A stretch of DNA of 64,000 nucleotides from a virus (Duplodnaviria; Caudoviricetes): the IMG/VR virus record IMGVR_UViG_2934390892_000001, positions 1 to 64,000 of that record; one strand, 5' to 3'. Position 1 is the stretch's first letter. Each line of letters begins with the position of its first letter. Both the position numbers and the translations under genes were made by a program. The notes under the pieces are model-generated. The model ran no database searches, was not told where the DNA came from, and was given only the letters and a program-made list of their open reading frames with translations. Shown piece by piece: positions 4,438-6,614 of the stretch.

Positions 4438-4968
4438 GTGAGCACCGCGACAGCGTTCAACCTGCGAGCCATCGTCCGCGACGTGCTGGCCACCAGCGCC
4501 CTTACCGACCCTGGCGCGCTGGCCAAAGAGGTATCGAAGCGCGTCCCGGATGACCATCTTCGCGAGGCGTTCGACGAGATGATCCGCACCTACGTGCAGA
4601 AGATCGTCACCGGGAACAGGACGCTGATTCTTCCGCCCGCAGCTTTCCACGAGGTGCCGACACCCGGCGGCAAGGTTCGACCGGTCGGCCGGTCAAAGAA
4701 GGTCGCGGAGATCCGCGAGGCGTGGCGTGTGGTGCTTCGCGAGCGGATCAACATCGGCCCGGCCGCTGAGGATTGGAAGGTTCTCGCCGACTGCGACACC
4801 GAAGATCTCCTGTTCGCTGAGACGGCGCGGCGAGACCTCGCTGCCCGGAACCTCGCGAACGCCGACCAGTTGAAGGGGCTGCGGGACCTGCTCGCCGAGC
4901 ACGGCAAGCAGCACGTCCGCGACCTCCCCGATTCAGTGCTTGCCGCCTACTTCGGTGGTGGCAAGTGA
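4438..4968 (+). CDS. Hypothetical protein, translationally coupled to the array/Tas-like ORF
   Basis: Phage-like codon usage; its stop overlaps the next start (GTGA at 4965-4968). Confidence 0.7.
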   Translation: MSTATAFNLRAIVRDVLATSALTDPGALAKEVSKRVPDDHLREAFDEMIRTYVQKIVTGNRTLILPPAAFHEVPTPGGKVRPVGRSKKVAEIREAWRVVLRERINIGPAAEDWKVLADCDTEDLLFAETARRDLAARNLANADQLKGLRDLLAEHGKQHVRDLPDSVLAAYFGGGK

Positions 4969-6614
4969 GCACCCCACAGACTTCCGCCCCAGCTAGCGGG
5001 ATCACGACGCCCAGGGAGTTCTCGTTGGGGCGGAACAGCATTTCCCGGTCGACCCCAGATCTGTCGACGCCCGTCGCTGAAGCGTTGGCCGGGTCAGGCT
5101 CCCTCGACGGCCAGGCCCCCGCCGACACCCAAGACGCGAGCGCTGTCGAGGGCAACTCTTCCCCGCAGGCCATATCTGATCCGGATCCCACATGGTCCGC
5201 GCCTGCGGGGACCTCATCTACGGCAGCGGCCAAAAGGAGCGCGTCTCCCAATGACTCCTCGCTGCTGCCGTTCAAGGCCAGCCAGGCCGCCCCAAACTGC
5301 TCCGACGCCCATCGTGAGTGCGGTGGCCTGGCTGAAGACCTCCCCGGCGACCAGGGTGACCCCGATTCCCATTGTTCAAGCGTCGCCGGGGACTCAGCTC
5401 AGCCGACAGCCATAGATCTGCCACTTCCCAAAGCAGCCTCGCTGTCGGCTGCCAATTCCCCCCGGACGGCCAATACACGCTCGTCGGCCATACACGACAC
5501 GCCGTCCGGGGATCAGCTTCCGCGAGAGGCCAGCGTAAGCTCGGCGCCCACATGGGCAACGCCTCTCGCGGATCAGACTCCGCCCCTGGCCATAGATCGT
5601 GCGCTCTCCAAAGCCGATTTGCCAGGGGTGGACGAAGCAGGGTCGTCGGTTCCGGCCGTACGCGAAGCGATGCCCATACGGCTACCGCCGGAACTGGCAG
5701 ACCCGCTCCTCGCTCTCGCCGCCGATGTCCTCGACGACCTGGAGTCGGTGTGGATCGCCAACACCAACCGCCTCCGGCAGCTCACCCGCGACGTTGAAGA
5801 CTCGGACGGGGAGGAGCGCGGCTTCGGCCTGACGCTCGACCACCCCGACGTCGCCCGCCTCGCCGCCCTCGTTGAGGCGCTGGACAAGGCGCAGCAGGAC
5901 GCAACGAAGAACCTCACGAAGAGGCTCAAGTCCCACCCGCTCGCGCCGTGGCTGAAGGCCCAGAAGGGCGTCGGCGACAAGCAGGCCGCGCGCCTGCTCG
6001 CGTCGATCGGCGACCCGTACATGCGGCCCGAGATGCGGTTCGAGGACGGCACCGTCGAGCCTGCACGCCCCCGCCGCGTAAGTGAGCTGTGGGCGTACTG
6101 CGGCTACCACGTCATGAACTTCCCCGCTGGTCAGCTCACGACCGACACCCATCTGGTCAGCGCCAGCGGGGGTAAGACCGGCCACCTCGACCAGAGTAGA
6201 AGCGATACCCATGCGTCGGGCGTCGGGGTGGCCCCCAAGCGGGCTCGGGGCCAGCGCGCGAACTGGTCCAGCACGGCAAAGATGCGCGCCTACCTCATCG
6301 CCGAATCCACGATGAAGCAGCTCAAGCGCACCTGCCCGGCCGACGAGGAACGCGGTTACGCCACCCACACGGACGGGTGCGAGTGCTCCCGCTACCGCAA
6401 GGTCTACGACGCCGCCCGCGAGAAGTACGTGGATGCCATCCACCACGCGGAGTGCGTCCGCTGCGGCCCGAAGGGCAAGCCCGCCCCGGTCGGCTCCGAC
6501 CTGTCGCGCAAGCACAAGCAGGCCCGCGCCCTCCGCATCGTCTCCAAGGAACTCCTGAAGGACCTGTGGCGCGAAGCGCGGCGCATCCACCTCGGAGAGG
6601 AGGAGACGACGTGA
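4965..6614 (+). CDS. Nop-domain / IS110 C-terminal-like RNA-binding protein (TasA-like, no nuclease domain); true start uncertain (4965 or ~5628/5670)
   Basis: Coiled coil, then WLKAQKGVGDKQAARLLASIGD, SELWAYCGY, RGQRANWS, YRKVYD and HKQARALRIVSKELLKDLW; no DEDD RuvC or HNH motifs. Confidence 0.8.
   Translation: MSTPQTSAPASGITTPREFSLGRNSISRSTPDLSTPVAEALAGSGSLDGQAPADTQDASAVEGNSSPQAISDPDPTWSAPAGTSSTAAAKRSASPNDSSLLPFKASQAAPNCSDAHRECGGLAEDLPGDQGDPDSHCSSVAGDSAQPTAIDLPLPKAASLSAANSPRTANTRSSAIHDTPSGDQLPREASVSSAPTWATPLADQTPPLAIDRALSKADLPGVDEAGSSVPAVREAMPIRLPPELADPLLALAADVLDDLESVWIANTNRLRQLTRDVEDSDGEERGFGLTLDHPDVARLAALVEALDKAQQDATKNLTKRLKSHPLAPWLKAQKGVGDKQAARLLASIGDPYMRPEMRFEDGTVEPARPRRVSELWAYCGYHVMNFPAGQLTTDTHLVSASGGKTGHLDQSRSDTHASGVGVAPKRARGQRANWSSTAKMRAYLIAESTMKQLKRTCPADEERGYATHTDGCECSRYRKVYDAAREKYVDAIHHAECVRCGPKGKPAPVGSDLSRKHKQARALRIVSKELLKDLWREARRIHLGEEETT
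4982..5697 (+). ncRNA. Stem-loop TIGR-like guide array, 12 units
   Basis: 12 tandem hairpins spaced 58-66 nt apart; stems of ~10-13 bp differ in sequence and each closes a 30-nt loop with consensus CCA-N9-CG-N4-CCA-N9-CG. Confidence 0.85.
6120..6233 (+). ncRNA. Two additional TIGR-like guide hairpins embedded in the Tas-like CDS
   Basis: ccccgctgg-TCA-gctcacgac-CG-acac-CCA-tctggtcag-CG-ccagcgggg and gccacctcga-CCA-gagtagaag-CG-atac-CCA-tgcgtcggg-CG-tcggggtggc. Confidence 0.8.

Follow-up and report, generated by a model that had tools for sequence, protein, structure and literature searches.

A stem-loop TIGR array that stays open in the tas reading frame and is probably translated as the N-terminal tail of a prophage Tas protein

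In the window analyzed here, a 64,000-nucleotide stretch of viral DNA (IMG/VR record IMGVR_UViG_2934390892_000001, positions 1 to 64,000), a stem-loop TIGR array and a TasA-type tas gene are part of the early operon in a temperate actinobacterial prophage, and we infer that the array is most likely translated, as an N-terminal tail of Tas, from a GTG at 4965 that is coupled to the gene upstream. Comparison of related loci shows signatures of selection, as read from their sequences, for a frame that is open and initiated upstream of the array. Guide-RNA arrays are usually regarded as non-coding; in the window, the guides and even their spacers seem to double as protein-coding sequence.

A nuclease-less Tas effector and its early operon

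The effector is a nuclease-less, TasA-like protein whose Tas (Nop-domain) core spans 5709..6581 on the + strand. The NCBIfam profile NF052498 (TIGR_Tas_endo) matches residues 14-304 of the 314-aa form along the entire length of the profile (1-215 of 215), scoring 204.6 bits where the cutoff is 100. The core as predicted by AF2 (pLDDT 82.8) begins with coiled-coil helices, and its ten top-ranked Foldseek matches are all TasR (9mty) or TasH structures (E 2.5e-7 to 2e-5, TM 0.5-0.57, probability 1.00), followed after the Tas matches by IS621 and then Nop5/Nop56; a phmmer search against the PDB returned 9mty_A (E 2e-4). Profile and predicted structure both place the protein in the Tas/Nop-domain fold, with its coiled coil and C-terminal RNA-binding domain. 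When the complete 549-aa ORF was searched against Pfam, no RuvC, HNH or transposase domain was detected and the one match was at chance level. No RuvC or HNH lies N-terminal to the Nop core, the 244 preceding residues being translation of the array, and a Tas core that lacks a nuclease domain is thus TasA-like. An IS110-family transposase with a bridge RNA was considered and rejected, as the NCBIfam IS110 profile scored 19.5 bits against a cutoff of 140 and matched only residues 61-118. The name “transposase”, carried by PHROG 4285 and by several phage records, is a misnomer for the Tas family here.

Directly upstream of the array is a gene of 200 aa, here called gene X (4366..4968, + strand), which matches PHROG 4604, annotated as “unknown function” (E 1.4e-17), and belongs to no Pfam or NCBIfam family. 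Its AF2 model is helical (pLDDT 85) and found no match among PDB folds (best E 4.1). Downstream of tas, a small ORF (6611..6709, + strand) opens with a GTG that overlaps the tas stop (GTGA) and has a strong SD; it lies within the frame of a listed ORF at 6377..6709. A promoter-like site on the + strand, TTGACT-18-AATAAT at 3520..3549, may be the promoter of an early operon with gene X, the array and tas, and a divergent promoter-like site on the minus strand faces it (hexamers 3405 to 3376), both sites having been called purely by consensus scan. A consensus scan for +-strand terminator-like sites in 3300-7200 found none.

The hairpin array

The array comprises 12 units (4981..5699, + strand), delimited by inverted repeats and by unit alignment, and runs straight into the Tas core on the same strand (4981-5699, then 5709-6581). 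Units are built on a variable stem with a consensus of 11 bp and a loop of ~30 nt, in which two variable segments of ~11 and ~9 nt sit between conserved CA...CG...CCCA...C positions, and linkers of 6-8 nt separate one unit from the next. They thus have the variable palindromic stems, the two 8-12-nt spacers and the putative box C/D-like motifs of stem-loop TIGR units. In the 12-unit alignment, changes on both sides keep pairing at 10 of the 11 stem pairs, and the predicted folding energy of one unit (5398-5453) is -24.8 kcal/mol. Aligned units start at 4981, 5041, 5099, 5158, 5218, 5279, 5339, 5398, 5458, 5518, 5578 and 5644, which gives spacings of 60, 58, 59, 60, 61, 60, 59, 60, 60, 60 and 66; the remark in the initial annotation that some unit lengths are not multiples of 3 is borne out by 4 of these 11 spacings. 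Unit 12 (5644..5699, + strand) aligns with the other 11 and keeps both the stem and the CCCA motif; its loop contains an ATG at 5670, and its 3' arm codes for the residues directly before the conserved Tas N-terminus (LADPLL). In many related loci, too, the last unit ends a few nucleotides beyond the anchor codon.

According to Xu et al. [quoted passage not shown] By eye, the 5' stem base in the window reads CTT in units 1 and 4, CTC in units 3, 7, 8 and 11, and neither elsewhere. As to the strand of the array, only the 12-unit alignment of the window bears on the question: its stem cells include G-U pairs on the + strand, and only one cell is broken. The other counts of G:T against A:C are uninformative or biased, since the positions directly outside the 10-bp detector window (90 vs 234) are unpaired and the count inside the stems (150 vs 50) is biased by the detector itself.

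Neither Rfam (E up to 10, over 3000-8000) nor blastn of 4900-5750 against a phage collection gave a match, and Tandem Repeats Finder did not detect the array because its units are too divergent. Self-targets of the spacers were not found in the 87-kb provirus in a search for paired sites on opposite strands, adjacent to one another at a gap of 0-2, with no more than 3 mismatches allowed; there was one match in each of two test geometries and one in the control geometry.

A single open frame through the array and tas

Array and effector are joined in one long ORF (4965..6614, + strand; 549 aa, GTG start), in which an array-encoded N-terminal tail is followed by the Tas domain. The GTG at 4965-4967 overlaps the TGA at 4966-4968 that ends the ORF 4366..4968, and the resulting GTGA (4965..4968, + strand) is a proposed point of translational coupling, based on the sequence and on the same overlap in relatives. 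The ORF listing and the sequence agree in this with the initial annotation, which had pointed to the overlap and had further described the frame as stop-free across all 12 units. The latter holds as well: over 4965-5669 there are 0 stops in the frame of 4965 and 3-7 in each of the other five frames, so that the units lie at the 5' end of an unbroken tas frame (0 stops over 235 codons). Within the units of the window, the register of the tas frame is 0 or 2 in 12/12 and the stop-prone register 1 in 0/12 (unit 1 by eye). In dinucleotide shuffles of 4965-5669, the frame of 4965 was stop-free in 138 of 5000 and any + frame in 368 of 5000. By itself, the open frame of the window is modestly unusual (p ~0.03) and suggestive; the shuffle test on a single window is not decisive, and it is the comparison of related loci that puts the open frame far beyond chance.

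A different explanation, in whose favor the 2.8% of shuffles that are open in frame can be counted, is that the array is an untranslated leader, that Tas starts at GTG 5628 or ATG 5670, and that the upstream frame is open as a relic or by accident, owing to high GC content. The alternative in-frame starts (5628..5672, + strand) would give proteins of 328 aa from GTG 5628, which is the database gene call, and 314 aa from ATG 5670; a TTG at 5619 is also in the tas frame. Both this gene call and the PHROG and NCBIfam profiles, which begin at ORF residues 244-249, are in keeping with a leader. So is the codon-position GC of the window array (0.64/0.65/0.70 vs 0.69/0.48/0.90 in tas), in which a coding signature, including one at GC3, was sought and not found. 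Further, short forms with their own SD occur in the family, for example in phage Euphoria, and SD-less translation is common in actinobacteria. Set against these points is the position of ATG 5670, which the initial annotation had placed inside unit 12 without a strong SD and which indeed falls within a hairpin loop closed by 10-11 bp; its predicted anti-SD duplex is -1.7 kcal/mol. The duplex at GTG 5628 reaches -0.3 kcal/mol and that at GTG 4965 -6.4 kcal/mol, on GGUGGUGG; for comparison, the starts at 6611 and 7956 in the window have -12.0 and -9.0 kcal/mol. A short isoform starting at 5628/5670 is possible in this prophage. As an account of the locus, an untranslated leader is in our judgment very unlikely, and the related loci described below bear most directly on it.

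If the array is translated, as we think probable, the resulting tail (235 residues, among them A 40, S 39, P 27, D 20 and T 17) is A/S/P/D/T-rich and, judged from this composition, probably disordered.

Stop avoidance across related loci

An alignment query was needed to retrieve the full set of related loci, a single-protein scan having returned 1 locus and a first viral scan 3. The set contains 167 loci, of which the 158 with at least 150 nt upstream fall into 119 clusters at 85% nucleotide identity, and the analyzed subset is made up of the 87 clusters with at least 3 hairpins adjoining tas upstream. Left out were the copy of the window (L008), 9 loci with less than 150 nt upstream, and the 32 of 119 clusters in which an adjacent array was not detected. 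The hairpin detector accepted loops of 27-36 nt and spacings of 52-70 nt; looser chaining gave 30 hairpins in a 6.6-kb piece of the window. For 31 of the array-undetected clusters, all three frames close on the contig, and in 12 of these the tas frame is nevertheless open for 100 codons or more.

In these 87 dereplicated loci, which are mutually related, the array has zero stops in the tas frame in 62 and in the other two frames in 10 and 8, where ~10 are expected, and this excess argues against an untranslated leader. The expectation that homologous arrays would likewise be stop-free in the tas frame was borne out by 62/87 loci and contradicted by the 25/87 with in-frame stops, which indicate that the tail is dispensable for the family. 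Summed over the array spans of the 87 loci, stops number 78 for the tas frame, 171 for +1 and 264 for +2 (Wilcoxon p = 1.4e-9). The same picture emerges from two measures that are independent of the hairpin detector: the stretch of open codons upstream of the conserved N-terminus has a median of 127 for the tas frame and of 36 and 31 for the others, and of 113 clusters, 87 have the tas frame as their longest open one. On the Tas tree, open loci occur in scattered positions that imply 19 changes of state, and so the open state is not one inherited accident.

Units of related arrays are 56-62 nt long, with lengths that are multiples of 3 in 103 of 238. The stop-prone register occurs in 9 of the 314 units of open arrays and in 42 of the 138 units of stop-containing arrays, a comparison conditioned on groups that were themselves defined by zero stops. 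This near absence of the stop-prone register from the tas frame fits the idea that stop avoidance constrains both spacers and unit lengths. Arginine makes up 5.7% of array translations in the tas frame and 17.0% and 18.6% in the other frames, and codon-position GC over the open arrays (0.69/0.63/0.71) carries a weak coding signal.

Upstream starts and starts near the Tas N-terminus

In the tas frame, an ATGA or GTGA overlap with the stop of the upstream gene is present in 49/62 open loci and in 0/25 stop-containing loci, a distribution that counts against an untranslated leader. Homologues of gene X lie directly upstream of the array in 48/62 open-frame loci and in 17/25 stop-containing ones. 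The coupled start is usually 16-18 nt before the first hairpin. More generally, a start upstream of the first unit was found in 55 of 58 open loci and lies 10-30 nt ahead of it in 47 (mode 16-18); 36 of these 47 starts are ATG and 11 are GTG, though at such a GC content codons ending in A are rare. For the upstream starts of open loci, the anti-SD duplex has a median of -6.4 kcal/mol.

Close to the conserved Tas N-terminus, in-frame starts are at chance level in the open loci (28/62, vs 32/62 and 9/62 off-frame) and enriched in the stop-containing loci (21/25, vs 10 and 2 off-frame). SD pairing at these N-terminal starts is weaker in open loci (median -2.35) than in stop-containing loci (-5.2; p = 0.01), again in groups defined by zero stops. 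In 24/87 loci, the nearest in-frame ATG, GTG or TTG is followed by one or more complete units, and this holds for 13/87 when starts are allowed as far as residue 24; the units so placed are 8/8 in L131, 5/5 in L025, 4/7 in L004 and 3/3 in L110. Several relatives are thus without any internal start, which makes the long form obligatory there, and together with the chance-level N-terminal starts of open loci they count further against an untranslated leader. In database records, gp59 of Gordonia phage BENtherdunthat is annotated as 425 aa through a 6-unit array, with a 4-nt overlap with gp58, and 96 of the best 120 database homologues have at least 60 residues ahead of the conserved N-terminus.

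Stop avoidance and a coupled start would be accounted for equally well if ribosomes traversed the array from GTG 4965 and the long product were not the working form, active Tas arising from an internal start or by removal of the tail. Read-through would then serve only to deliver ribosomes to tas, or to protect a long structured RNA against decay or Rho-dependent termination. Consistent with this, no peptide is conserved in the tail, since the register shifts between units; the family works tail-less in 25/87 loci; and the window keeps internal starts. However, the long form is the only option for relatives that lack an internal start, open loci show no enrichment of proximal starts, neither a protease site nor a processing signal is known, and the N-terminus of Tas tolerates fusions (bioRxiv 10.64898/2026.09.09.750476). 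We consider this explanation unlikely.

Proposed mechanism and significance

We favor translation of the array as part of the working Tas protein. The suggestion in the initial annotation that ribosomes may translate through the array is supported by the open frames, the coupled starts, the unselected N-terminal starts and the forced read-through in relatives. The 12 units would constitute the first ~245 codons of the tas frame and not an untranslated leader. Initiation would take place at GTG 4965, coupled through the GTGA overlap to termination of the conserved gene X, and ribosomes would traverse all 12 hairpins to produce a 549-aa Tas with a probably disordered tail. In the open architecture, tas would lack both a start under selection and a separate ribosome-binding site, so that a stop in a spacer or a shift into the stop-prone register would abolish Tas, and spacers and unit lengths would be constrained as a result. 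One transcript would be both the tas mRNA and the guide precursor; guide maturation, by cleavage at the stem bases, and binding of Tas would compete with translation of Tas, opening the possibility of feedback on it. A counterpoint to read-through is that twelve GC-rich 11-bp hairpins would slow ribosomes.

Tentatively, and with more doubt than confidence in the whole, the array may be put to obligate dual use. Tas would then be made only by ribosomes that start at the upstream-coupled codon and unwind 12 hairpins, and Tas that binds or cleaves the hairpins would stop its own synthesis and so set the Tas-to-guide ratio. Each new spacer would have to pass a “no stop, right register” filter, and the accessory or maturation factor missing from stem-loop TIGR systems could be the protein of gene X.

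An array held in frame would limit the spacers that a TIGR array can carry, and would explain both the long “disordered N-termini” and the inconsistent gene calls in the family (236 to ~550 aa, with the “transposase” label). It also suggests that effector synthesis and guide maturation are intrinsically linked. Stop avoidance, ATGA/GTGA coupling and an unselected internal start turn what was a passing remark in a preprint, discussed below, into a sharply testable claim, for which loci of the L131 type, with no internal start, are clean test cases. Further, well-studied Mycobacterium and Gordonia phages carry unannotated TIGR arrays.

Comparison with known systems

To our knowledge, CRISPR arrays are not translated. 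The omega-RNA overlaps the 3' end of tnpB and the bridge RNA lies in the 5' leader of the IS110 recombinase gene, and in both of these systems only the scaffold overlaps coding sequence. The window resembles CRISPR, bridge RNA and omega-RNA systems in that the guide RNA is encoded beside, or partly overlapping, the effector gene; it differs from all three in that protein would be read from the multi-guide array as a whole, its spacers as well.

Within the family, a homologous Tas with ~44% identity is encoded by gp70 of Mycobacterium phage Euphoria, with similar hairpin units upstream on the same strand; other Mycobacterium phage records are of this separate-array type too. In contrast to the window, the 5-unit array of Euphoria occupies a gap without annotation that follows a TAA stop; next come AAGGAGG and the GTG start of a 236-aa protein. 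An in-frame TAA is located 18 nt ahead of this tas GTG; the array is untranslated, and the gene has a strong SD of its own.

Stem-loop TIGR-Tas systems with a nuclease-less TasA have been described, e.g., PlTasA from a Peromyscus leucopus gut contig (Faure et al. 2025, PMC12045711; bioRxiv 10.64898/2026.08.11.744272). PlTasA-type systems and the window have in common tandem hairpins whose palindromic stems vary, a pair of short spacers set between small conserved motifs, a nuclease-less Nop-domain effector with the Tas fold and an above-cutoff match to the NCBIfam Tas profile, and a phage or prophage location. The PlTasA array is described as three subarrays with an intergenic region of ~450 nt between subarrays (PMC12045711; bioRxiv 10.64898/2026.08.11.744272), whereas all 12 units of the window are inside the effector frame, after a start coupled to a conserved upstream gene.

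The closest precedent is the text of Xu et al. [quoted passage not shown] It further states that intragenic units usually correspond to disordered regions, that extended disordered N-termini occur in many clades, and that nuclease or disordered N-terminal regions precede the Nop core in other stem-loop Tas clades. That work used annotated coding sequences, its text gives BlTasA, with units in the wedge loop, as the sole experimental example, and it leaves both co-transcription and translation open. Stop-avoidance statistics, ATGA/GTGA coupling and the 16-18-nt spacing do not appear in its text, and the supplements or TIGRSafari may contain them. The window locus is a case of the intragenic 5' array of Xu et al. 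(2026), and what is new is the comparative support.

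An open frame through the guide array

The window, 64 kb long, is part of an 87-kb provirus record and contains, on the plus strand, an ORF of 549 aa at 4965..6614 that starts with GTG. The initial annotation described this frame as running through the whole guide array into the effector, from a GTG that overlaps the upstream stop as GTGA, and both points are borne out: GTG 4965 shares bases with the TGA that ends the ORF just upstream (4366..4968), and the frame of 4965 contains no stop in 4965-5669, versus three to seven in each of the other five frames. Inverted repeats and unit alignment place 12 hairpin units on the plus strand at 4981-5699. 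The units share an 11-bp stem in which changes on both sides preserve 10 of the 11 pairs, and a loop of ~30 nt in which fixed CA, CG, CCCA, and C positions surround two variable segments of ~11 and ~9 nt. Unit spacings of 60, 58, 59, 60, 61, 60, 59, 60, 60, 60, and 66 nt agree with the remark that unit lengths are not all multiples of three. Under an assumed geometry, a search of the 87-kb provirus yielded no spacer target.

Dinucleotide shuffling left the tas frame stop-free in 138 of 5000 sequences and, taken alone, the open frame of the window is only modestly beyond chance; relatives were therefore gathered.

Stop avoidance among related loci

The relatives comprised three annotated phage records, one genome locus, 82 viral loci, and 80 metagenome loci. 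Each locus was anchored at the codon that aligns with the LADPLL of the conserved N-terminus, hairpins were detected blind to reading frame, and dereplication at 85% nucleotide identity reduced 158 loci to 119 clusters, of which 87, with at least three units directly upstream of tas, supply the array counts. Within the array span of these clusters, the tas frame holds 78 stops versus 171 and 264 in the remaining plus-strand frames. The initial annotation had pointed to homologous arrays as a check, and 62 of the 87 are indeed stop-free in the tas frame ("open" loci), versus 10 and 8 for the two other frames and ~10 expected from the off-frame rate. The same bias appears when the hairpin detector is left aside: Upstream of the anchor, the tas frame stays open for a median of 127 codons versus 36 and 31 for the other two, and it is the longest of the three in 87 of 113 clusters. 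Because the open state is dispersed over the Tas tree, with 19 changes, it is not a single inherited accident. Four other related loci (L028, L127, L086, and L011) have 220-450 open tas-frame codons upstream of the core and no array by the detector; this stretch may consist of diverged units or be a genuine extra N-terminal domain.

Across loci, units are 56 to 62 nt long and only 103 of 238 lengths are multiples of three. One register of the three, counted from the central CCA, is stop-rich (~0.46 stops per unit where the tas frame lies in another), and the tas frame occupies it in nine of 314 units of open arrays versus 42 of 138 units of stop-containing arrays, these groups being themselves defined by stops. 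Four register shifts occur in the window frame, yet none of the 12 units puts it outside the two safe registers (unit 1 corrected by eye). Arrays translated in the tas frame are rich in A, P, G, S, T, and D, with 5.7% Arg versus 17.0% and 18.6% in the other frames; a codon-position GC signature is absent from the window array and only weak across open arrays.

Where translation starts

A start codon precedes the first unit in 55 of the 58 open loci that have an upstream stop on the contig. In 47 of the 58 it lies 10-30 nt ahead of that unit (mode 16-18 nt; 17 nt in the window), and these 47 starts, 36 ATG and 11 GTG, have a median anti-SD duplex of -6.4 kcal/mol. A tas-frame ATGA/GTGA overlap with the stop of a long upstream ORF occurs in 49 of 62 open loci and in none of the 25 stop-containing loci (14 without overlap, six in another frame, five undecided). 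The six off-frame overlaps before the array (loci L029, L045, L046, L082, L005, and L132) could mark a fused form that is frameshifted or decaying, a misassembly, or ribosomes that change frame in translation.

Alternatively, translation could begin inside the array region: In-frame starts also occur internally in the window, and GTG 5628 was chosen for the database gene call. The anti-SD duplex is -0.3 kcal/mol at that GTG and -1.7 at ATG 5670, versus -6.4 at GTG 4965 and -9 and -12 at two neighboring genes; the lack of a strong SD initially noted for ATG 5670 is thus correct, and the codon does sit in unit 12, inside its loop. An in-frame start lies close to the conserved N-terminus in 21 of 25 stop-containing loci (off-frame 10 and 2), but in only 28 of 62 open loci, not above the off-frame 32 and 9, and SD pairing of such starts is weaker in open than in stop-containing loci. 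The nearest in-frame ATG/GTG/TTG has at least one whole unit 3' of it in 24 of 87 loci, or in 13 of 87 when starts to residue 24 are allowed. Over 228 codons of the related locus L131, only one in-frame start occurs, an ATG that precedes the first of eight units by five codons; L025, L004, L110, and L150 are similar. The main points against translation of the array are the internal starts of the window, the missing GC signature, and the finding that about a quarter of the family (25 of 87 loci) does without an array-encoded tail. On these sequence patterns, we consider it likely that the array at the window locus is translated as part of the long ORF, and plausible that guide maturation and Tas binding would compete with translation of the same transcript.

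The relatives fall into two forms. In the fused form, the upstream gene leads through an ATGA/GTGA overlap into an array in the tas frame; in the separate form, the array follows the end of the upstream gene and is interrupted by stops, and tas comes with a dedicated SD and start codon.

Immediately before the long ORF, a 9-bp hairpin at 4939-4965 (arms 4939-4947 and 4957-4965, 89% complementary) contains the SD-like GGTGGTGG and extends as far as the first base of GTG 4965; initiation could thereby depend on ribosomes completing the upstream gene.

A conserved upstream gene

That gene, gene X (4366-4968, plus strand, 200 aa, helical), matches PHROG 4604, to which no function is assigned, and has no Pfam, NCBIfam, or PDB fold match. 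Helical homologs of 150-250 aa (e.g., L106:1575-2093 and L094:342-911 in two related loci) immediately precede the array in 65 of 87 loci (48 of 62 open and 17 of 25 stop-containing), and the junction to the array-tas ORF is usually ATGA/GTGA. Gene X is a conserved partner, and its product is a candidate for an accessory factor in TIGR systems of this kind.

Divergent promoter-like sites at 3376-3549 (minus-strand hexamers from 3405 to 3376; plus strand 3520-3549) sit between a leftward ORF (2818-3342) and small rightward ORFs (3520-3831 and 3828-4157). This arrangement resembles an immunity switch whose rightward early operon would include gene X, the array, and tas. Downstream, a 32-codon ORF (6611-6709) with a strong SD overlaps the tas stop through its GTG (GTGA); a comparable small CDS lies over the end of the tas homolog in Gordonia phage BENtherdunthat (L001:3288-3404).

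Identity of the effector and comparison with known systems

The protein from 5670 on scores 204.6 bits (cutoff 100) against the TIGR-Tas model NF052498, over the entire profile and beginning at residue 14. An AlphaFold2 model (pLDDT 82.8) has TasR (9mty) and TasH as its ten best PDB matches, followed by IS621 and archaeal/eukaryotic Nop5/Nop56. Since a Pfam search found no RuvC or HNH domain, the effector is TasA-type. In the Tas core, some 45 residues (150-195 of the 314-aa form encoded at 5670-6611) are modeled with pLDDT <50; stem-loop Tas proteins are described as having variable insertions, and this segment may be one of them. The label "transposase" given to the family in PHROG 4285 and in several phage records is wrong, since the IS110 model scores 19.5 bits, far under its cutoff of 140. 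Among 90 matching phage records, 83 are Mycobacterium phages, and the Tas homologs in these records are labeled hypothetical, transposase, or DNA-binding protein.

Stem-loop TIGR arrays have been described as palindromic variable stems with two short spacers amid small box motifs (Faure et al. 2025, PMC12045711). Only the preprint of Xu et al. (2026; bioRxiv 10.64898/2026.09.09.750476) came up in a full-text search on intragenic tigRNAs, and a search on TIGR/Tas in mycobacteriophages returned nothing on these phage arrays. In the text of that preprint covered here, we found neither stop avoidance in numbers, nor a start coupled to a conserved partner gene, nor the absence of a selected start inside the array. 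The preprint reports that stem-loop arrays may sit inside the tas CDS, at its 5' end among other places, with the frame kept, that intragenic units match disordered regions and that many clades have extended disordered N-termini, and leaves co-transcription and processing open. The in-frame 5' array is thus of a kind already in print, and the window locus is a further member. Mycobacterium phage Euphoria, in contrast, has the separate form: Its five-unit stem-loop array (L002:2115-2449) lies between gp71 and gp70 in an unannotated gap, taken as intergenic; AAGGAGG and a GTG come after it, and an in-frame TAA is located 18 nt upstream of the Tas start.
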